Positions 2,453 to 10,513 of a stretch of DNA of 10,513 bases are shown here, one piece after another. Position 1 is the first letter of the stretch. Each line of letters opens with the position of its first letter. Origin of the DNA: a virus (Duplodnaviria; Heunggongvirae; Uroviricota; Caudoviricetes). The stretch lies in IMG/VR virus record IMGVR_UViG_2703718834_000006; one strand, given 5' to 3'. The notes under the pieces were generated by a model. That model had not been told where the DNA came from and did not search any database. It saw only the letters and a list, made by a program, of their open reading frames with translations. Made by a program: the position numbers and the translations under genes.

Positions 2453-3094
2453 TCAAAGCAACGGGATTTCAAGGTAAACTGCGGTTGCCAAAATACTAAC
2501 ATCTTCATTTCTAACAAGAATATTAGGATACATTGGGTTTAGGGATACTAGGTTTGTCTCTATTTCACCAATGTAAACCTGTTTGAAGCTCAATATTTGC
2601 TCTTTATCCAAAGATGCTATTACATAATCTTTGCTTTTAGCTTTTACTAGAGGGCTGAACGTGACAACCGATCCTCTGGGAAAGCTAATACCTGAACTTG
2701 TAGTCATAGCTTCACCTTCAATAGTCAATGCAAATGCAGAGTCACCAACATTGTATATTGCCGGATGAAATCTAGACGATGAATGTTCACCTGTGTTTAG
2801 GTAATGCATAACTTCATCTAGTTTGAGGATTGGTATTTGCTTTACCAGAACGTCAGGCATGACGTTTTTTGTTCCCGGCCCCTGGCCTTCACCCAGAGCT
2901 AACCACTCAGCCGTAGTGCCTAATGCGTTGGCTAATGCCTGCAATACACGAAGCCGTGGTTTAGCCTCACCACCCTCGTATGCAGCTATTTGACGTTGAA
3001 CAACACCAGCTAATTTTGACAACTGCGCCTGCGTCATACCCCTCGACTGTCTTGCCAGAGATACTCTTGATGGGAATTGATCGTCAAAATTCAT
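2453..3094 (-). CDS. Lambda-CI/LexA-like repressor: N-terminal XRE-type HTH plus C-terminal S24-peptidase-like domain with Ser-to-Ala at the nucleophile position (predicted non-cleavable)
   Basis: 213 aa. N-terminus (residues ~10-65) has a Cro/C1-type HTH pattern (MTQAQLSKLAGVVQRQIAAYEGGEAKPRLRVLQALANALGTTAEWL). C-terminus aligns with lambda CI from memory: DSAFALTIEGEAM vs DSAFWLEVEGNSM, ISFPRGSVV vs PSFPDGMLI, SFKQVY..LVSLNPMYP vs [22 protein letters not shown]. Lys171 corresponds to CI K192, but the Ser149 position is Ala129. No A-G or C-G dipeptide in the linker. GGTGA ribosome-binding site upstream of the ATG at 3094. Confidence 0.8.
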   Translation of the reverse strand: MNFDDQFPSRVSLARQSRGMTQAQLSKLAGVVQRQIAAYEGGEAKPRLRVLQALANALGTTAEWLALGEGQGPGTKNVMPDVLVKQIPILKLDEVMHYLNTGEHSSSRFHPAIYNVGDSAFALTIEGEAMTTSSGISFPRGSVVTFSPLVKAKSKDYVIASLDKEQILSFKQVYIGEIETNLVSLNPMYPNILVRNEDVSILATAVYLEIPLL

Positions 3095-3193
3095 TAGTTC
3101 ACCATAAAAAATTCATTGACTCATACTGAGTGTGAGTGAATAATCAAACCTCAAAAAGTGAGATTATGAGTTTTTCAAAAACAGGAGTGCATA
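3095..3193. promoter_or_regulatory. Divergent promoter/operator region between the CI-like gene and arc-ant; candidate Pant-like promoter TTGACT(3116-3121)-N17-AATAAT(3139-3144) with overlapping palindrome and tandem repeats
   Basis: Rightward -35/-10 pair with 17-bp spacing. Palindrome ACTCA-TAC-TGAGT at 3119-3131 overlaps the -35 and spacer, followed directly by tandem TGAGTG TGAGTG (3127-3138), with further GTGAG/TGAG copies at 3158-3170. Operator-like arrangement inside a core promoter, as with the Arc/Mnt operators at P22 Pant. Identified by eye, not scored. Confidence 0.4.
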
Positions 3194-3367
3194 ATGACTG
3201 AAAAGATATCTTCCATCAAGCCGCGTCAGGTTCGTTTTACAGAAAAGGTTGATTCACATATCCGCGAATCAGCAAAAAGATGCCATAGGTCAATTCAGGC
3301 AGAGATAGCTTATCGAATGGAGTTATTAATGAAACTTGAGGCAAAGGGCGATGTTGTCATCCAATAA
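3194..3367 (+). CDS. arc: Arc-like ribbon-helix-helix repressor (57 aa); absent from the supplied ORF track
   Basis: ATG at 3194 preceded by AGGAG (3183-3187) at 6-nt spacing; stop TAA at 3365-3367. Translation: MTEKISSIKPRQVRFTEKVDSHIRESAKRCHRSIQAEIAYRMELLMKLEAKGDVVIQ. Layout matches an RHH fold (N-terminal beta strand then two helices) and resembles P22 Arc (..RSVNSEIYQRVMESFKKEGR..) in the RS..EI and K-G motifs. Lies immediately upstream of ant, as in P22. Confidence 0.6.
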   Translation: MTEKISSIKPRQVRFTEKVDSHIRESAKRCHRSIQAEIAYRMELLMKLEAKGDVVIQ

Positions 3368-3369
3368 AA

Positions 3370-3440
3370 ATAGTGAAGCCCGGCAGTGCGCGAACACAAA
3401 CCGGGCCTCTATGTCAGTAACCGTATGCAAGGAAACTAAC
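3370..3440 (-). ncRNA. Candidate sar-like antisense RNA covering the arc-ant spacer and the ant ribosome-binding site (inferred)
   Basis: On the minus strand an extended -10 element TGcTACAAT (complement of 3447-3455) would start transcription near 3440. It would run through the complement of the ant Shine-Dalgarno/start (3429-3443) and end at the GC-rich hairpin 3378-3406, which on this strand is followed by TTCACTATTTTTA. Predicted length about 70 nt, the size and location of the P22 sar RNA. No expression evidence. Confidence 0.3.
3378..3406. terminator. GC-rich stem-loop in the arc-ant spacer; likely intrinsic terminator for leftward (antisense) transcription and possible attenuator of arc read-through
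   Basis: GCCCGG (3378-3383) pairs with CCGGGC (3401-3406); an inner GTG/CAC pairing is possible within the loop. A T-rich tract follows only on the minus strand (complement of 3365-3377). Confidence 0.35.
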
Positions 3441-4067
3441 ATGAATATTGTAGCAAAATCAGATTACAACTTCCACGGAGTTGAGTTGGTGCCCACCCGT
3501 GATATGCATGGTGTTTGGTTTACATCATCTAATATTGCATCTGCACTTAAATATGCAAATAGCCGTGCAGTAACAATGATTTATAACAAGTATAGCGATG
3601 AGTTTAGCGCCGGGATGACTCAGGTACTCGAAGTGAGTACCTCAGGAAATTATCGCAAAAAAGTGCGAGTTTTCTCACTACGCGGTGCCCACCTAATCGC
3701 GATGTTTGCTCGCACTCCGGTAGCCAAAGAGTTCCGCCGCTGGGTGCTGGATATTTTGGATCGGCAGGCAGAATGCTCACCGATTGCAAAACAGTTCACT
3801 GACGAAGAGCTGGTTAATCTCTGCTACTTACAATTGTGGATGGAGAAGAGTCAACAAATGTGCAAACACATCTACCCAGGAATGAAGCAAATTGGTTCTG
3901 AGCTTTCAGGAAGGATTTACGATATTGCATATGAGACTCGCTACATGTCAGAAGAAACCAAGAAATCACTTCTTCGTGAAATGAAGAATCTTGATACCAA
4001 CAATTTTGTCGTAAAGAACGCTCAGCCAATGCTGGCAAAACTGCGCGGCGAGGAATGGATTCATTGA
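3441..4067 (+). CDS. ant: Antirepressor Ant (Bro-N / AntA-type N-terminal domain)
   Basis: ATG at 3441 with AAGGAA ribosome-binding site at 3429-3434. The track's 3336 start is a TTG that overlaps arc and is rejected. N-terminus YNFHGVELVPTRDMHGVWFTSSNIASALKYANSRAVTMIYNKY...VRVFSLRGAHLIAMFARTPVAKEFRRWVLDILD matches the Bro-N/AntA antirepressor pattern (FxF..., WF.a.dva.aL, rG.lia.f..tp.a.efrrWv). Sits downstream of arc. Confidence 0.8.
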   Translation: MNIVAKSDYNFHGVELVPTRDMHGVWFTSSNIASALKYANSRAVTMIYNKYSDEFSAGMTQVLEVSTSGNYRKKVRVFSLRGAHLIAMFARTPVAKEFRRWVLDILDRQAECSPIAKQFTDEELVNLCYLQLWMEKSQQMCKHIYPGMKQIGSELSGRIYDIAYETRYMSEETKKSLLREMKNLDTNNFVVKNAQPMLAKLRGEEWIH

Positions 4068-4154
4068 TTGGTGCACAGGACGGCGCAAAAGAAAACCGCC
4101 AGTGTGCTGCTGGCGGCCTATGTCACACCCTTACTACCACATAAGGAATGCCTA

Positions 4155-4883
4155 ATGACTTTTAAGAATGTAGCAAACATCGGATCCGTTGTCACGGATA
4201 AAACCATTGACAGCCAGCGCCTGCTTGAGATGGTAAATCAGGCTCGTAGACAGTGCGGTGAGCCGGAGGTTCGTAATAACAAATTCATCGAGAAAATTGA
4301 AGATGAATTGGATGGAGAGCACTACACAAAAAGTGTAGTGCAAAAAGCGAACAAAACTTCGATGGTTATCATTGAGATGTCAATCAAGCAAGCATTGCGA
4401 GTTGCCGCTCGCGAGTCAAAAGCCGTTCGCCGCTCACTGGTAGACCAACTTGAAAGCATGCAAGAAGCGCACATTAAAAGCGGTAAATCAGCGAGTGGAC
4501 TTGTTGAGTATCGTCAAGCGCGAACATTGAAAATGACGGTTGAAGCTGTTACCAATCTGTTCGATCTGATGCCAAATCTTGCGCCTGAGGCAAAGCAGAC
4601 AGCGGCAGCAAGTATAATCAACCCGCTCGTTGGTTTTAATGCAATACCTCTTCCGGCAATAGAAGAGCATTACTACTCAGCAGGGGAGGTTGCAGAGCAG
4701 CTTGGAGTAACGGCCAACAAGATTGGTCGCATTGCTAACGCAAACAACCTCAAAACTGAGCAGTACGGGAAGTTCTTCCTGGATAAATCTGCGCATTCCA
4801 GCAAACAGGTGGAAGCATTCCGCTACAATGCGGAAGGCGTTAAAGCACTACAACACCTGATTCATGGGAGTAATGTTGCATAA
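4155..4883 (+). CDS. Hypothetical phage regulatory protein with C-terminal KilAC (ANT)-like HTH segment; possible second antirepressor-type protein
   Basis: ATG at 4155 with AAGGAA at 4143-4148. The track's 4068 start is a TTG directly after the ant stop and is rejected. The C-terminal stretch YYSAGEVAEQLGVTANKIGRIANANNLKTEQYGKFF resembles the KilAC-domain motif of phage antirepressors (..tEiAkelGvsa..lnk.L...g......g). The N-terminal 150 aa are not recognised. Confidence 0.5.
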   Translation: MTFKNVANIGSVVTDKTIDSQRLLEMVNQARRQCGEPEVRNNKFIEKIEDELDGEHYTKSVVQKANKTSMVIIEMSIKQALRVAARESKAVRRSLVDQLESMQEAHIKSGKSASGLVEYRQARTLKMTVEAVTNLFDLMPNLAPEAKQTAAASIINPLVGFNAIPLPAIEEHYYSAGEVAEQLGVTANKIGRIANANNLKTEQYGKFFLDKSAHSSKQVEAFRYNAEGVKALQHLIHGSNVA

Positions 4884-5104
4884 TGGCAAAGAAAAAATAT
4901 GGCATTATGCCGCCAAGAATCAAAGGAAGAGCTAGGGTAAAAGGTGATGCTGGAAGGTATCACATTCTTGGAGTTCTGTGGCATGAGAGAGCTTTAATTT
5001 TAAGTAGACCTCATGGGTACATTGAAAAGGTATCTATAGATAGAGTAGAGATTCTTCCCCTTACACCTGAAGAAGAAGAAACGTACGGACTTTTTGATAA
5101 CTAA
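4883..5104 (+). CDS. Hypothetical small basic protein (73 aa), translationally coupled to the upstream gene
   Basis: Its ATG overlaps the upstream TAA in ATAATGG (4881-4885). Basic N-terminus (MAKKKYGIMPPRIKGRARVKGDAGR) and acidic C-terminus (TPEEEETYGLFDN). Followed by a strong intrinsic terminator. No family recognised. Confidence 0.45.
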   Translation: MAKKKYGIMPPRIKGRARVKGDAGRYHILGVLWHERALILSRPHGYIEKVSIDRVEILPLTPEEEETYGLFDN

Positions 5105-5110
5105 CCAACT

Positions 5111-5137
5111 AAACCCGCTTAATCGCGGGTTTTTTCT
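5111..5137 (+). terminator. Rho-independent terminator ending the arc-ant-orf-orf operon; hairpin overlaps the mnt stop codon on the opposite strand
   Basis: AAACCCGC-TTAATC-GCGGGTTTTTTCTTTT: stem CCCGC/GCGGG flanked by A/T pairs, followed by a run of six T (5130-5135). On the minus strand only TTT follows, so termination is probably mainly rightward. Confidence 0.75.
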
Positions 5138-5376
5138 TTTCTAAGGATATCAGCCGCAACTTCTTTTACTCGTTCCGAGATTAATGAGGCCAGCCTCTCT
5201 TCTTCATCACGATACCCGCTTACAGGTGGTGGTTTGGAGAGTGATTCTTCCATCGTAGCCACAATTTCGGAATTGATAGACCTGTTATTCATTTTTGCAC
5301 GCTGTTTAATCTTGGCGTGCAACTCGTGCGTAAGCCTCAAGTGGAACTGCGCCTCATCGTATTTGCTGTACATCAT
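5119..5376 (-). CDS. mnt: Mnt-like ribbon-helix-helix repressor (85 aa)
   Basis: MMYSKYDEAQFHLRLTHELHAKIKQRAKMNNRSINSEIVATMEESLSKPPPVSGYRDEEERLASLISERVKEVAADILRKEKTRD aligns along its length with P22 Mnt as recalled (..PHFNFRMPMEVREKLKFRAEANGRSMNSELLQIVQDALSKPSPVTGYRNDAERLA..). Start is ATGATG at 5376/5373 with a GAGG ribosome-binding site. The 217-aa track ORF (5119-5772) is an in-frame upstream extension and is rejected. Confidence 0.8.
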   Translation of the reverse strand: MMYSKYDEAQFHLRLTHELHAKIKQRAKMNNRSINSEIVATMEESLSKPPPVSGYRDEEERLASLISERVKEVAADILRKEKTRD

Positions 5377-5462
5377 CAATGCCTCACCAAATGGGTGGAA
5401 TGGCATCGTAAAACCTACTGTACAAATCAACAATCGTACCGTTTCGGTATGCAACAAATACC

Positions 5463-5478
5463 AACCGTGGCCACGCTG
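5463..5478. promoter_or_regulatory. Palindromic candidate operator (perfect 10-bp core CGTGGCCACG at 5466-5475) between mnt and the tailspike gene
   Basis: AACCGTGG|CCACGCTG. GC-rich dyad symmetry built from GTGG/CCAC elements, the same elements that make up the P22 Mnt operator half-sites, though in the opposite relative order. Lies about 90 bp upstream of the mnt start and about 35 bp upstream of the tailspike start. Confidence 0.3.
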
Positions 5479-5508
5479 CGGCGATTCATTGTATCTGGAG
5501 CAAATTAA

Positions 5509-7569
5509 ATGACAGACATTACAGCCAATGTTGTAGTAAGCATGCCTTCGCAACTCTTCACTATGGCTCGTTCTTTTAAAGCCGTAGCTAATGGAAAGAT
5601 TTATATCGGAAAAATTGACACTGATCCGGTAAATACTGAAAACCAGATTCAGGTTTATGTGGAGAACGAAGACGGCTCTCACGTTCCTGTTTCGCAACCA
5701 ATCATCATTAACGCTGCTGGTTACCCGGTATATAACGGACAGATTGCCAAATTCGTTACCGTGCAAGGCCATTCTATGGCTGTTTATGATGCATATGGTG
5801 CGCAGCAGTTCTATTTTCCGAATGTGCTGAAGTATGACCCTGATCAGTTCAAAGTTTTACTGACAGGGAACGAAGGTTCGACATATATTGGAGATGGCGC
5901 AGGAACTGTAAGCGATTCGCTAAGAAGCTTGGAACATGAGTTTGAACTAATCCAAAGTTTGGATGAAAGGCCAAATCCACCACCTACAGAAGGATATTCA
6001 GGGTATAAGCGCTGGAACCCGATTCATGAAGATGGTTTTCAACTTGGCAGATATACGTTTAAAACTCCAACGCATGTTGATTTTCAGTTTGTATGCGACC
6101 CAATAAATAGTGACATTGGACCAATATTTTCTATGGGCATGGATGGTATAGATCAGCGATCAGCATTTTTTTCTCAAGACAGCTATGAAATTAGAAATGT
6201 AATGATGGATGGGGGGACGGCAAAGCTTGTTGAATTTGAGCCATGGACATCTCATATGGCAACAGTAGAGAAATGTCGTGTTATCAATCCTGAAGATAGC
6301 AACGAGTGGGTAGTTAATTTTAAAGCACAAAATTGGTGGCCACATATTATAAATAATACATACATGGAATATAACGATCACGCCAATAATTTTGTCAAGG
6401 CAATTGATGATGGTGGTAACACAACAGATAGATATTCAGGAAATAGTAGGCTTTTTATTGCATTTAATAGATGTGCATGGCAGGGTGGTAGCGCTGTCGG
6501 TACTGGCATTATGTCATATACATCTGCTGTCGCAACGAGAATAAAAGACAACTCCGCACAGAATGCAAAAACATGCGTTATTTTTGGATATCCATCAACG
6601 TTTTCTTCAGTTGATGGACTTTATTGCGAGATGGCATTTGGACACCAACAAGTCGTACAAATTGGCGATTCAGAAACGACATCGCAGCAGATACTGACTG
6701 ACATTACTATAAATGATGTTTATGCTAATTTACATGGCATAAACTCAAACAGAATAATTGTTGCTGGGAATGATGATGTGATAATGAACTATTTGGAGGT
6801 TGACAAGATATTTATTTCAAATATTCCAGGGTCAGGTTTTATTCAGCCAATAATATCAATTAACGATTTGCCATATCAAAAGATTGTTGCAGGAAGGATT
6901 ACTGCTGAAAATATGCCGCTTCTTCCGTTAACATCCAACCATGTTTCTGTTATTGATAAATACAACGCAGATATACCAGCTCTGAATGGTGACATTATTT
7001 ATATAGAGAACAGTACAGTAAGTATTCCTCCCAACTCATCAACTGCTGTTGCTCCTGGATGGTTTGTAAGATCAACATCTAATACAGTGTTTACTAGGAG
7101 TGGTGCAGGGACTCCAAACAATGCATTGAGAATGAGTCGTTATATTGCATCTGTTCTTAGTAATGCTGGCGCAACGACATCGATTACATTCGAACATCCA
7201 CGAGCCGACTTGGTGAATGGTGAGGCAGTGACAGTCCAGGCTTTGTTTAACGCTGATGTTGAACTAACATTTTTAGTGCACATATATGTAGCAAATGACA
7301 ATGGAGCAAGAACTACACTACTTTCAAAAACATTAGTAGGTGGAGGCTCGTGGAAGGAAATGACCTTTACGGTTGGAGTTTCAGGGGTTGAAAATACTAA
7401 ATCATGTATAGTTGTAGAGATCGGAGCCACAACACCATACTCTACTAATATTTTTGTCACAGGGCATCGCATGAACAGAGGTCGCTTTGGCCTGTGCGGA
7501 GCGGCTAATACTTTTAGCTACGCTGAAACTGAAAGGATGAAGTCGGATTATGATTATATAACCCCATAG
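5509..7569 (+). CDS. Tailspike protein: P22-type N-terminal head-binding domain fused to a divergent receptor-binding domain
   Basis: 686 aa; GGAG ribosome-binding site 9 nt upstream. Residues 1-116 ([42 protein letters not shown]...[15 protein letters not shown]...[10 protein letters not shown]) are near-identical to the P22 gp9 head-binding domain as recalled. After about nt 5857 the sequence has no resemblance to the P22 endorhamnosidase domain and becomes visibly AT-rich. Confidence 0.9.
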
Positions 7570-8035
7570 AAACTAACTGAAGAATAAGAACAAAAATGAT
7601 GTGGGAATAGTTAGATTAGATCTTCTTGATTTTTTCGAAAAATCTAATGATGTAATCGCTATTCCTGCACGTAGTTTATGTTATAACTATCTTATTTCTA
7701 TACTAATAGAAACATGTTAAAAACACGACGTAAATATTTTCATCCATCTGGAGACATGTCACTTTAAATGGATGTTTCAGTGATTTTTAAAAGTATCATG
7801 TCAGTGCTGAATGAGCTAGATACCCATGTATTTAATAGCTTTTTATTTGATCGGCAATTTTTATATGATAATCATGGTAATTTTATATATGTCATGATCG
7901 AAGAGTATTTTACTATACTAACAACTAGTGATAATTAGAACAATGCATGGCGATATGCTTTATAATTTGATGAGACATTATCAAATATGGCACTCATTTA
8001 TTATAAATATTTTTGTAAGAACAAGTATAAATTAA

Positions 8036-8054
8036 AGGGGGCAATACCCCCCCA
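8036..8054 (-). terminator. Probable intrinsic terminator for the acyltransferase gene (minus strand)
   Basis: GGGGG-CAATA-CCCCCCC hairpin 12 nt beyond the TAG stop (8065-8067). On the minus strand it is followed by TTTAATTTAT. Confidence 0.4.
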
Positions 8055-8064
8055 GTAAACAACA

Positions 8065-9075
8065 CTAACCTTCAGCTACTATAATTTCTTTTCTCTTTCT
8101 TCTTAAGAACGGCTTTTCGATATAATAATAAGAAACAGTCGCCAGTAATGTAGTTGCAAAAAGACTAAGAGCTATGGATGGGATGAATTTATTAGTTATA
8201 TTATTTATAATGATCTGTTGTACTGGGAATGCGTATATATACAAACCATAAGATATATCAATCCTTCCGTTTATAACCCTGTCTTTAATGGTTAGGCCAA
8301 GAACAATAATTATAACAGACAAACATAGTGGCGCTACAATTTGTATTTCCGGCTTACCAGTCACGGCAATAAGCAACAATAAGGCAGTAATGAACACTTG
8401 CTTTTTATACTTCAACCATGACTCAGTAGTCATTGACAATAAAGCACCAAAAAAGAATGGCATGCCAAATAATGATAATGATTTAAAAGGCACACTAAAA
8501 TATGTGTAATTTTCAGGATAGAAGTTGAAAATTATTGTGGAAAGTATGCATGTAACTAATAATAAAGCAGGCCCGACCCATGTGAACGATATAGAGAGCG
8601 CAAGGCCAATTATTAGATAGCATGAAAATTCTATAGGCAGCGTCCAAAGGCTTCCATTAATAACATGAGGGTAAAAGTAATCAGAAAACACTCCATCCAC
8701 ATAACTCTGCAGGAAAAAAGTATTTCTTATGATATTTAAGTATGGCTGGGAAGAAAATAAATATGCGTAACTATTATTGGAGTTAAATTCTACTGCGACA
8801 AATAAATACATAACAACAGAGCATACAAATAATGCAGGAAATATACGCAGACACCTTTTCCTCATGAACTCGATAAACGAACCAGATGAATTAAAACTTT
8901 TTGGCATTAAGAAACCAGATAAACAAAAGAAAATTGCAACTGCGACCGCACCATAACTATCCCATTGAAGAAAAACAGGCTCATGATCACCAGATAACCT
9001 GAAGTGATGAGAAAATAAAACCATGTAGGCGGCGACATGTCTAATTATATCAAATGAATTATTTCGCTCGCTCAT
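8065..9075 (-). CDS. Integral-membrane acyltransferase family 3 protein (Oac-like; putative O-antigen acetylase for lysogenic conversion)
   Basis: 336 aa with about 10 predicted transmembrane helices. Carries acyltransferase-3 hallmark motifs: SFDIIRHVAAYMVLFSHH (R/H motif), YGAVAVAIFFCLSGFLM, RKRCLRIFPALF and SYGLYIYAFPVQ. Strong GAGGAG ribosome-binding site 5 nt upstream of the ATG at 9075. Very AT-rich. Position between tailspike and int matches oac in phage Sf6. Confidence 0.8.
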   Translation of the reverse strand: MSERNNSFDIIRHVAAYMVLFSHHFRLSGDHEPVFLQWDSYGAVAVAIFFCLSGFLMPKSFNSSGSFIEFMRKRCLRIFPALFVCSVVMYLFVAVEFNSNNSYAYLFSSQPYLNIIRNTFFLQSYVDGVFSDYFYPHVINGSLWTLPIEFSCYLIIGLALSISFTWVGPALLLVTCILSTIIFNFYPENYTYFSVPFKSLSLFGMPFFFGALLSMTTESWLKYKKQVFITALLLLIAVTGKPEIQIVAPLCLSVIIIVLGLTIKDRVINGRIDISYGLYIYAFPVQQIIINNITNKFIPSIALSLFATTLLATVSYYYIEKPFLRRKRKEIIVAEG

Positions 9076-9355
9076 TAAAGCTCCTCATAATGTATAACAC
9101 ATGTTAAGTTATTTAAGTGAAATTGTAATACCGAGGATGCTGTGCATGATTGTCAACACCTAGAATAGACACATAGGTAGCATGTGCAAGGCGCAATTAA
9201 TGACTTCATGACGCAACTCAATAATCAAAAGCATGAAGTCTATCATCCAAGTCTTAATCGATCTATGACTTGCTGTGGTTGATGAGACAAAACTGAGACA
9301 AACAAAGCTTTGCACTGGATTACAAGGCTTAGTGTCATTCGATAGCTAAGGTGGA
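9076..9355. other. Putative attP-containing spacer between the acyltransferase gene and the int 3' end; also carries the acyltransferase promoter
   Basis: 280-bp non-coding spacer directly beyond the int stop, the attP position in lambda, P22 and Sf6. Contains a 9-bp inverted repeat GACTTCATG (9202-9210) / CATGAAGTC (9232-9240) and a third ATGACTT copy (9265-9271). A consensus TTGACA on the minus strand (complement of 9151-9156) is a possible -35 for the acyltransferase gene. No tRNA 3'-end-like sequence was recognisable. Confidence 0.3.
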
Positions 9356-10513
9356 TCACTCAACCTTTTCATCAATCCAGTCCGCCCACCATTGCATCAT
9401 TTCTCTGCGTTTATCGAGATACTGAGCATGGTTGTAAATCCCACGCACAGATCCGCCGTTGGCATGTGCCAGTTGCACTTCAATAGCGTCAGCAGGCCAT
9501 TCGTGCTCGTTCATAATTGTGCTGAATTCATGCCTGAATCCGTGACCGCTTTCCAGACCCTCATAGCCGATTTGTTTGATCACAAGCAATACCGCGTTCT
9601 CGCAGATTGGCTTCTTCTTATCGTTGCGCCCGGCAAAAACAAACTCTGATACTGGTTTAGTGATGGAGCTTAGCGTAGTGAGAAGTTCAACCACCTGGTC
9701 TGACATAGGAACCACATGAATCCTGCGTCCCTTCATCACACTGGCGTCGATAGTGATAATCCTGTTTTCAAAATCGACGTTCTTCCATAGCATGGAACGA
9801 AGCTCTTTCGTTCTTAGGGCAGTGTAGCGTAAAACTTTGGTCGCAATAAGCGATACGATACTTCCTGAAAATGTTGCCAGTGCTTTATTGAATGCTGGGA
9901 TCTGGTCGGCAGGTAAAAACGGGAAGTTTTTCTTGCGGTATCCCTTCATGGCGTCAGCAAGGTCAGGTGCCGGGTTATATTTAGCCCTACCGGTAACAAT
10001 AGCGTAACGGAAAACCTCGCCGCATCTTCTGCGTGCTTTATTGGCTCGCTCCATTGCACCGCGATCTTCAAACCTGCGGATTACTTCCAGCAGTTGCATA
10101 GGCTCAATATCCTGAATTTCAAGGCCGCCGATGATAGGTAAAATGTCGTCATCAAACATTTTTGCAAGTTCAGTTGCATAGCCTACTGACCAGACTTGCT
10201 TCTTGTGCTCGTACCATTCCTTGTAAATCGCACTAAAGGAATTGTTGTTAGACGAAGCCTTTTTCGCTTTTACCGGATCGATGCCAACCGAGATGTCTTT
10301 CCTCGCAGTCCATGCTTTATCCCTTGCCTCCTGCAAAGTCATAAGCGGATATTTTCCTACGGTCAGGATTTTCTCCTTACCGTCAATCTTGTAGCGAAGC
10401 TGCCATACCTTTTTCCCTGACACAGGGACATAAAGGTACAGGCCATTACCATCGAGTAGGCGGTATGGTTTTTCTTTCGGCTTTGCTGCTTCAATCTGCT
10501 TAACGGTGAGCAT
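9356..10513 (-). CDS. int: Tyrosine site-specific integrase (P4/P22-type, with N-terminal arm-binding domain); complete, start codon at the last bases of the window
   Basis: 385 aa. N-terminus MLTVKQIEAAKPKEKPYRLLDGNGLYLYVPVSGKKVWQLRYKIDGKEKILTVGKYPLMTLQEARDKA is the canonical start of P4-like integrases. C-terminus holds the catalytic region (HGFRHEFST...VQLAHANGGSVRGIYNHAQY) with the H-x-x-R and Tyr nucleophile context. Confidence 0.9.
   Translation of the reverse strand: MLTVKQIEAAKPKEKPYRLLDGNGLYLYVPVSGKKVWQLRYKIDGKEKILTVGKYPLMTLQEARDKAWTARKDISVGIDPVKAKKASSNNNSFSAIYKEWYEHKKQVWSVGYATELAKMFDDDILPIIGGLEIQDIEPMQLLEVIRRFEDRGAMERANKARRRCGEVFRYAIVTGRAKYNPAPDLADAMKGYRKKNFPFLPADQIPAFNKALATFSGSIVSLIATKVLRYTALRTKELRSMLWKNVDFENRIITIDASVMKGRRIHVVPMSDQVVELLTTLSSITKPVSEFVFAGRNDKKKPICENAVLLVIKQIGYEGLESGHGFRHEFSTIMNEHEWPADAIEVQLAHANGGSVRGIYNHAQYLDKRREMMQWWADWIDEKVE

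Follow-up and report, generated by a model that had tools for sequence, protein, structure and literature searches.

The immI region of phage P22 is the textbook case of layered antirepressor control, in which two repressors and an antisense RNA govern a single antirepressor. Antirepressors can act in trans on other prophages, and a number of them are controlled by LexA, including GfoA and GfhA of the Gifsy prophages, Tum of phage 186, AntC of N15 and Ant of SPC32H, all of which are kept silent under an S24-family repressor; the LexA control of GfoA and GfhA was reportedly described by Lemire et al. in 2011. Here, an antirepressor module related to immI was analysed computationally in a 10,513-nucleotide stretch of DNA (IMG/VR record IMGVR_UViG_2703718834_000006; the whole stretch is called the window), which comes from a P22-like (Lederbergvirus) prophage of Escherichia coli and makes up its right arm. 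An earlier note on this DNA had described positions 2453-5508 as an immI-type antirepressor module in which a CI-like helix-turn-helix (HTH)/S24 protein, instead of Mnt, is divergent from arc-ant, and this description was borne out, with every listed gene and feature present at its position as judged from open reading frames (ORFs), Pfam searches and promoter and terminator scans. The note had further taken the region to be one circuit of three repressors with a displaced Mnt. The reading favored here, to which we assign a probability of about 60%, is that the region consists of two adjacent immI-type units, namely a self-contained mobile antirepressor cassette at 2453-5132 and a lone mnt gene (mnt') at 5119-5508. 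The features of the region are as follows.

2453-3094, minus strand: CI/LexA-family repressor of 213 amino acids (aa), with the Pfam domains HTH_3 (expectation value, E, 9e-13) and Peptidase_S24 (E 1e-12)
3095-3193, no strand: divergent control region of 99 base pairs (bp), from the promoter scan and the comparison of cassettes
3194-3367, plus strand: ArcL, a ribbon-helix-helix (RHH) protein of 57 aa, first gene of the operon
3361-3456, minus strand: sar-type antisense unit (covariance model R1, 80.5 bits)
3441-4067, plus strand: antirepressor Ant', 208 aa, with the Pfam domains Bro-N and P22_AR_C (P22_AR_C at E 3e-14)
4084-4176, minus strand: second antisense unit, from the terminator and promoter scans
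4155-4883, plus strand: orf242, a predicted antirepressor-class protein of 242 aa
4883-5104, plus strand: orf73, 73 aa, its start overlapping the orf242 stop codon (TAATG) and translationally coupled to it
5111-5132, no strand: intrinsic terminator, an 8-pair stem followed by TTTCTTTTCT (terminator scan)
5119-5373, minus strand: Mnt', 84 aa, a homologue of P22 Mnt (45% identity) with an Arc Pfam domain (E 4e-14)
5374-5508, no strand: spacer between mnt' and the tailspike gene (alignment of six loci)

The module occupies the immI slot of P22, with gene 16/sieA on one side and the tailspike gene on the other. Similar to P22 immI, it has divergent, interdigitated promoters, a gene for a small RHH protein at the head of the operon, a homologous sar-type antisense unit over the start of the antirepressor gene, and a P22_AR_C domain in the antirepressor. 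Dissimilar from P22, the divergent repressor is an HTH protein with an S24 fold and not Mnt, and Mnt' lies about 2 kilobases (kb) away in convergent orientation; moreover, ArcL is not detectably Arc-like in pairwise comparison, Ant' carries Bro-N in place of P22_AR_N, and downstream there are two additional genes and another antisense unit. Compared with the LexA-controlled antirepressors, the repressor here is phage-encoded, cassette-specific and predicted to be dead as a protease, no SOS box is present, and an RHH autoregulator and antisense RNAs have been added in the cassette. Polylysogen induction modules made of a transcription factor and a small ORF, reported by Silpe et al. 2023 (PMC10432266), are likewise portable, divergent from their own regulator and able to set prophage fate independently of the main repressor; unlike the present module, they reportedly consist of other proteins, with small antirepressor peptides and no RHH or antisense layer. 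The immI slot was named the "ant moron" by Villafane et al. 2008 (PMC2629481), and the ant moron of prophage HS-1 in that paper is the same module, with the copy in E. coli HS interrupted by insertion sequence (IS) IS3.

The true unit of the region is the series of CI-like gene, promoter region of 97-100 bp, gene for a 57-aa RHH protein, antisense RNA and one or more antirepressor genes. This unit recurs, with CI-like proteins of 32-81% identity, in about 50 distinct viral contigs on varied phage backbones, for instance within a lambda-like tail gene cluster (locus L009), beside an integrase in Salmonella (L011) and in a phage with its own Phage_CI_repr (L013). Among 53 unique CI-like homologues, an ArcL homologue is immediately divergent in 47, an antirepressor of the Ant', P22 Ant or orf242 type is next in the operon in 48, and an orf242 homologue is present in 17 of the cassettes. 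The six loci that lack an ArcL match and the five that lack an antirepressor match overlap only partly; when L009 and the L064 group were inspected, genes of the antirepressor class were present despite the missing match, and inspection of L013 and L064 revealed a small upstream ORF, RHH-like in L064. These data indicate that the cassette recurs and is portable. In L009 (2100-9400), the cassette lies between the tape-measure and minor-tail genes.

The mnt' gene behaves as a separate unit. Of the complete E. coli genomes, 64 contain a segment with this gene (132 when partial matches are counted), compared with 28 for the segment encoding the CI-like protein and ArcL, and among 50 distant cassettes just 4 have any Mnt in the locus. 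Sf101 has a 62%-identical mnt' as the sole gene between the ejection genes and the tailspike gene. In L020, the same cassette is followed by an identical terminator and then by a complete P22-type immI, in which mnt has its own Pant, Oarc, Omnt, arc and ant; in the window, this terminator (5111-5132) stands between the convergent operon and mnt' and marks the right end of the cassette. The L020 mnt gene (1727-1975) is a recombinant, its C-terminal half being as in the window mnt' and its N-terminal, DNA-binding half being P22-like, with P22-type operators. Within the spacer upstream of mnt', positions 5377-5455 are almost invariant even in comparison with Sf101 and IME10, though the Mnt' proteins are only 62-64% identical. 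This stretch includes the palindrome GTACCGTTTCGGTAT at 5436-5450, the only good copy in the window by pattern search and a candidate operator for Mnt', and beside it a weak leftward promoter candidate (TTGTTG, 17 bp, TACGAT) was read by eye. Neither the scan nor inspection by eye found a rightward promoter directed at the tailspike gene, as a relic of Pant, in 5374-5508. The earlier notion of a displaced Mnt within one three-repressor circuit is therefore not supported, because mnt' occurs without the cassette, forms a unit of its own in L020, and has no copy of its palindrome at the ant promoter; mnt' is the lone survivor of a second, P22-type mnt/arc-ant unit that is independent of the cassette.

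A search of 5,426 complete E. coli genomes found the whole 3.1-kb segment in 26 of them, at 95-99.8% identity and with 80% coverage or more. All ORFs are intact across those 26, and because of this recurrence the layout is not a product of chance; the segment with the CI-like gene and ArcL is present in 28 of the 5,426. Phage JEP4, which was isolated as a phage and is a component of a phage cocktail, carries the module at 95.9% identity, and the module is annotated there. Another carrier is E. coli HS (L007), whose DNA is about 95.6% identical to the window and whose CI-like protein and ArcL have the same RefSeq accessions as those of AHB29, the closest E. coli match to the window; in the HS copy, IS3 interrupts the gene for the 242-aa protein (L007 5411-6558). 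Fig. 3 of Villafane et al. 2008 (PMC2629481) shows prophage HS-1 of this strain among its "ant moron" types, and the paper describes it as apparently without arc, so that its antirepressor must be controlled differently; neither the gene for the CI-like protein nor the antisense RNAs nor the broader family of cassettes was analysed there. The check for a recurring gene order, proposed along with the earlier claim that the arrangement was not a described one, thus returned the same order in E. coli genomes, in JEP4 and in HS-1, and the claim has to be withdrawn, since the module had already been drawn as the HS-1 ant moron and annotated in JEP4. No functional study of the module was found in the literature on JEP4, immI and antirepressors, and the locus in the Kapi1 transcriptome paper is a P22-type mnt-arc-ant region and not the CI-like cassette. 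The module, an uncharacterised immI variant, belongs to a widespread family of portable cassettes and is not a unique rewiring. Two variant structures were observed at related loci. The 242-aa/73-aa part of the cassette has received IS3 in HS and IS100/IS21 in MS15236 (hit H33), and in MS10495 (L002 2902-3507) a 106-aa Arc-family protein and a different 57-aa Arc stand in place of the CI-like/ArcL pair, as an alternative "specificity cassette". The break in homology in L002 coincides with the end of arc (window position ~3361), and the ant'-orf242-orf73-mnt' block beyond it is unchanged.

In the control region between the divergent genes (3095-3193), the promoter scan identified a rightward promoter, Pant', as the best sigma-70-like site, with TTGACT as the -35 box (3116-3121), AATAAT as the -10 box (3139-3144), a 17-bp spacer and 10 of 12 matches. 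Reading by eye revealed a candidate leftward promoter composed of TTGATT (reverse complement of 3142-3147), a 16-bp spacer and TATGAG (reverse complement of 3120-3125), so that the leftward -10 box overlaps the -35 box of Pant' and the leftward -35 box overlaps the -10 box of Pant'. An equal interdigitated layout was read by eye in the Pant/Pmnt sequence of P22. Across 26 non-redundant cassettes, most lineages have 97-100 bp from one start codon to the other, and the -35 box keeps a fixed position. The conserved element TATGAGTTTTT at 3165-3175 and the TGAG(T/A) repeats at 3127-3131, 3133-3137, 3159-3163 and 3167-3171 are candidate operators. A pattern search of the window detected no palindrome of the Mnt' type near 3095-3193, and no LexA box (CTGT-N8-ACAG, with at most one mismatch) is present in 3095-3193; the three that occur elsewhere in the window correspond to chance level.

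The earlier note had contained no antisense RNA, and scans revealed two antisense units, one of them with covariation. The ArcL-ant' junction shares homology with the arc-ant junction of P22, where sar is encoded. An extended -10 element, TGcTACAAT (reverse complement of 3447-3455), lies within the first ant' codons, the predicted RNA runs from ~3440 to ~3365 and spans the start codon and ribosome-binding site of ant', and the terminator hairpin has its arms at 3375-3383 and 3401-3409, its T-run overlapping the stop codon of ArcL. In the L009 cassette, the hairpin of P22, GAAGCCCCAACTGCGGTAACAGTCAGGGCTTC, is found unchanged. In an alignment of 40 arc-ant type junctions (A2), the antisense strand retains the extended -10 element (TGnTAnAnT), which in every antirepressor gene falls within the first codons, as well as the complement of the start codon and the hairpin and T-run overlapping the ArcL stop codon. 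RNAalifold returned 10 base pairs for this alignment, 7 of which show compensatory changes, and the covariation (0.488) was above that in shuffled alignments (0.258; 0 of 500 as high) and collapsed on sliding the pairing partners. Read as antisense RNA, 93.8% of the cells are paired, with 71 G-U pairs, compared with 77.2% and 5 G-U pairs for the sense strand, and this excess therefore indicates that selection acts on the antisense RNA. The predicted antisense RNA folds into two stem-loops at -33.8 kcal/mol (z-score -5.75), while the sense strand reaches -20.0 kcal/mol (z-score -2.25).

The covariance model R1 detected the antisense unit in 59 of 60 sources, including untrained ones and CUS-3, and scored P22 at 65.4 bits; the only source without a match was Sf101 (L004), which has no arc-ant operon. 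Rfam gave no match in the window at E<=1, and its sar model, RF00262, misses the window copy; this model matches P22 as well as L009 and L062, two cassettes whose hairpin is of the P22 type, and misses 15 of 16 other cassettes, so the window copy is beyond the reach of the model and is not absent. The true family is considerably wider than the sar model of Rfam. The second antisense unit has an extended -10 element, TGcTACATT (reverse complement of 4167-4175), inside codons 5-7 of orf242 and an intrinsic terminator stem (4119..4093) followed by a T-run. By inspection, the leaders of orf242 homologues keep the hairpin, the A/T-run and the antisense TGnTAnAnT with altered stems. The ant'-orf242 junction was considered as a second copy of sar and rejected, as it has no R1 match and is not homologous, being of the same design in a different sequence. 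By analogy with the role of sar for P22 ant, both antisense RNAs are proposed to limit translation.

The first protein of the operon, ArcL, has weak Pfam matches to ParD_like and Arc, the Arc score being 16 bits against a cut-off of 20.4. A profile of 29 ArcL family members matched the solved structures of Arc/pArc (2.7e-5 to 2e-3), AmrZ and Mnt (6e-4), and ArcL is proposed to be an analogue of Arc that shuts off Pant' by autoregulation. The start of Ant' is at 3441 and not at 3336 or 3438, in agreement with RefSeq. The C-terminal part of Ant' shares 29% identity with P22 Ant over 69 aa, the N-terminal domain is Bro-N and not P22_AR_N, and the protein matches the PHROG family anti-repressor Ant at 1e-53; its proposed role is to inactivate prophage repressors of the C2 type by binding them. 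Pfam searches of each protein upheld the domain assignments of the earlier note overall, with the exception of "KilAC-like" for 4155-4883, for which Pfam gave no match even at E<=10, KilAC (ANT, PF03374) included, and which held for the predicted fold alone. An AlphaFold2 model of orf242, with a predicted local distance difference test score (pLDDT) of 68, matched antirepressor, KilAC and Rha proteins in a Foldseek search of BFVD (E 1e-9 to 1e-6), and comprises an N-terminal domain resembling Rha/KilA-N, a helical middle and a C-terminal winged-helix domain. A fold search of the PDB gave a weak match of the winged-helix domain to RacA and BldC (E about 0.1). In PHROG, orf242 matches family 1726, "anti-repressor" (5e-101), and on the strength of this match and the modelled fold it is classed as a second protein of the predicted antirepressor class. 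The 73-aa product of orf73 matches PHROG 4977 (function unknown), a narrow family of 8 clusters, and has no Pfam match; its model is beta-rich, of low confidence and without a fold match.

Like lambda CI, P22 C2 and LexA, the 213-aa CI-like protein combines HTH_3 with an S24 fold and retains the general-base Lys (FKQ); unlike them, it has Ala at the position of the nucleophile and no Ala-Gly site, is not encoded at immC, and is paired with an RHH protein rather than an HTH protein of the Cro type. The S24 fold is C-terminal to the DNA-binding domain and was aligned to residues 129-226 of lambda CI. In the HMMER alignment, VEGNSM of lambda CI, which contains Ser149, is opposite IEGEAM of the window protein, so that the nucleophile has changed from Ser to Ala, and SFKQV with the general-base Lys is opposite TFKKL of lambda. 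The linker of the window protein, which reads QIPILKLDEVMHYLNTGEH, contains no Ala-Gly (or Cys-Gly) scissile bond; the relative in L013 has IMAG, an Ala-Gly site, at the aligned linker position. The catalytic motif has the family consensus GDSM and reads GEAM or GDAM in the window protein and the relatives closest to it, and GDSM is still intact in the 81%-identical relative in L009. In an alignment of 55 rows (the 53 unique homologues, the window protein and lambda CI), Ser and Lys are both kept in 33 rows and one or both are lost in 22, with Ala and Lys in the clade of the window protein; loss of the catalytic pair thus recurs in several clades of the CI-like family.

A change of Ser to Ala abolishes self-cleavage in LexA and lambda CI. 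No self-cleavage is predicted for the window protein because it has Ala for the nucleophile Ser and lacks an Ala-Gly site, and, judging from its sequence, the protein would be blind to SOS, with the S24 domain predicted to be left for dimerisation only. The inducibility implied when the protein was first called lambda-CI-like S24 is contradicted by these same two changes. The CI repressors of phages such as mEp213 and the Stx phages share 27-32% identity with the protein. A normal immC (c2, cro, c1) is present in JEP4 as well, and the 213-aa protein is therefore an additional and not the primary repressor; it is proposed to be the maintenance repressor of the divergent ant' promoter, and the cassette would appear to have converged on the logic of Mnt through a different fold. 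Long-form CI-like relatives of 265-290 aa (P0012-P0021, L048-L080) have an extra C-terminal extension of ~60 aa in comparison with the window protein.

In the mechanism that we propose for the cassette, Pant' would fire on infection before any CI-like protein exists, giving a burst of ArcL, Ant', orf242 and orf73. Ant', and possibly orf242 as well, would inactivate the C2-type repressors of resident prophages, and ArcL would then shut Pant' off, as Arc does. The antisense RNAs, which would start inside the first codons of ant' and orf242 and end just upstream of the ribosome-binding sites, would cap translation. In the lysogen, the CI-like protein would silence Pant', the job of Mnt in P22, and the phage's own repressor would in this way be protected. 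A bolder extension, which we regard as tentative, is that the cassette is a mobile, self-contained anti-immunity switch that passes between unrelated temperate phages, and that its S24 domain alternates over evolutionary time between a cleavable form, with which DNA damage frees the antirepressor, and a dead form, with which the cassette, as with Mnt, is silent in the lysogen and acts on infection only; the window copy would then be a dead one and carry two antirepressors with different targets, both under an antisense RNA of their own, as a weapon to induce or override rival prophages.

That the CI-like protein, Arc and a distal Mnt all control the same antirepressor promoter as a single circuit is unlikely. 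All three DNA-binding proteins are indeed encoded within 3 kb, the exact combination is found in 26 complete E. coli genomes, and Mnt' has no arc-ant of its own here and hence no obvious local target; however, mnt' with its upstream region occurs in 64 genomes against 28 for the cassette, stands alone by the tailspike gene in Sf101, has a complete set of Pant, Oarc, Omnt, arc and ant of its own in L020, and accompanies only 4 of 50 distant cassettes, and the only good copy of GTACCGTTTCGGTAT is at 5436-5450, with none near 3095-3193. It is quite unlikely that the CI-like protein is a second immunity or exclusion repressor (a moron) or a decoy for foreign antirepressors, to which the adjacency of ant would be incidental. 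Its membership of a family of primary phage repressors, to which the 27-32% identity to the CI proteins of mEp213 and Stx phages testifies, its location next to sieA, another exclusion gene expressed from the prophage, and the SOS-proof immunity that a non-cleavable form would give are all in keeping with such a role, but a pairing with an RHH protein and an antirepressor across 97-100 bp in about 50 lineages and several backbones is not expected if the adjacency is incidental, and the carrier phages have primary repressors of their own.

Erosion within a cryptic prophage would account for the change of Ser to Ala, for an orphan mnt' whose arc-ant partners are gone and for the IS3 and IS100/IS21 insertions in HS and MS15236. 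We consider it very unlikely that the module is such a decaying remnant, as every ORF is intact, with 95-99.8% conservation over the 26 genomes, JEP4, which has a copy, is a phage isolate, the S24 domain retains the Lys and the remainder of its fold, loss of the catalytic pair is seen in several clades, and the compensatory changes in the hairpin indicate ongoing selection. Removal of the CI-like protein after DNA damage, by RecA-stimulated cleavage or another route, with release of Ant', is highly improbable for the window copy, in which the nucleophile position is Ala, no Ala-Gly site is present and the control region contains no LexA box; the ancestral cassette may have worked in this manner, given that the Ser-Lys pair is kept in 33 of 55 rows and that L013 has the Ala-Gly site too.

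Several points weigh against the reading of two adjacent units with a self-contained cassette. The functional roles within it, that is, which protein binds where, what is repressed, what the antirepressors target and whether the antisense RNAs are produced, are ones that we infer. Insertion sequences in some copies indicate that the cassette is dispensable in the prophage. Both the leftward promoter and the promoter of mnt' were read by eye and are below the threshold of the scan. Repeat finding, k-mer conservation and comparison of near-identical loci yielded operator motifs that are not separable between the CI-like protein and ArcL, and TTGACTCAT, the most conserved motif, was set aside as an operator, since the overlapping promoters explain it better. 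BLASTP detected no pairwise similarity between ArcL and P22 Arc. The fold z-score of the second antisense unit is only -1.98, with its covariation judged by inspection, and the prophage's own C2, which bears on the target of Ant', lies outside the window.

The immI logic thus also exists in a widespread portable form, in which a CI/LexA-family protein takes the place of Mnt and the sar-type RNA and promoter geometry are kept. The point left open in 2008, how HS-1 manages "without arc", is answered by the presence of an RHH protein, the proposed Arc analogue ArcL, and of a sar homologue. In this one cassette family the S24 catalytic pair has been lost repeatedly, which provides a natural series for the comparison of SOS-coupled with SOS-blind control of antirepressors, and cassettes of this kind may decide which prophages cross-induce in polylysogenic E. 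coli, Shigella and Salmonella.

PADLOC, run on seven proteins, gave generic HTH matches for the CI-like protein only and none for the other six, and thus indicated no component of a defence system. The remaining features of the window are the following.

1-1875: ejection protein gp16
1898-2392: sieA homologue (95.5% nucleotide identity to P22 over the end of gp16 and sieA)
5509-7569: tailspike with the P22 head-binding domain
8065-9075, minus strand: acyltransferase (Acyl_transf_3), in a low-GC island
9356-10513: integrase

The stretch from the tailspike gene to the integrase gene (7500-9100) is a low-GC island with 30-35% G+C that carries the Acyl_transf_3 gene (8065-9075), which is probably a conversion gene for O-antigen acetylation similar to oac of Sf6 and Sf101. 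In the tailspike (5509-7569), the Pfam match is confined to the first 113 residues, the head-binding domain, and the remainder has no match; related prophages have other tailspike bodies behind the same N-terminus, encoded by genes of 1.9-2.7 kb in L002, L003 and L007.

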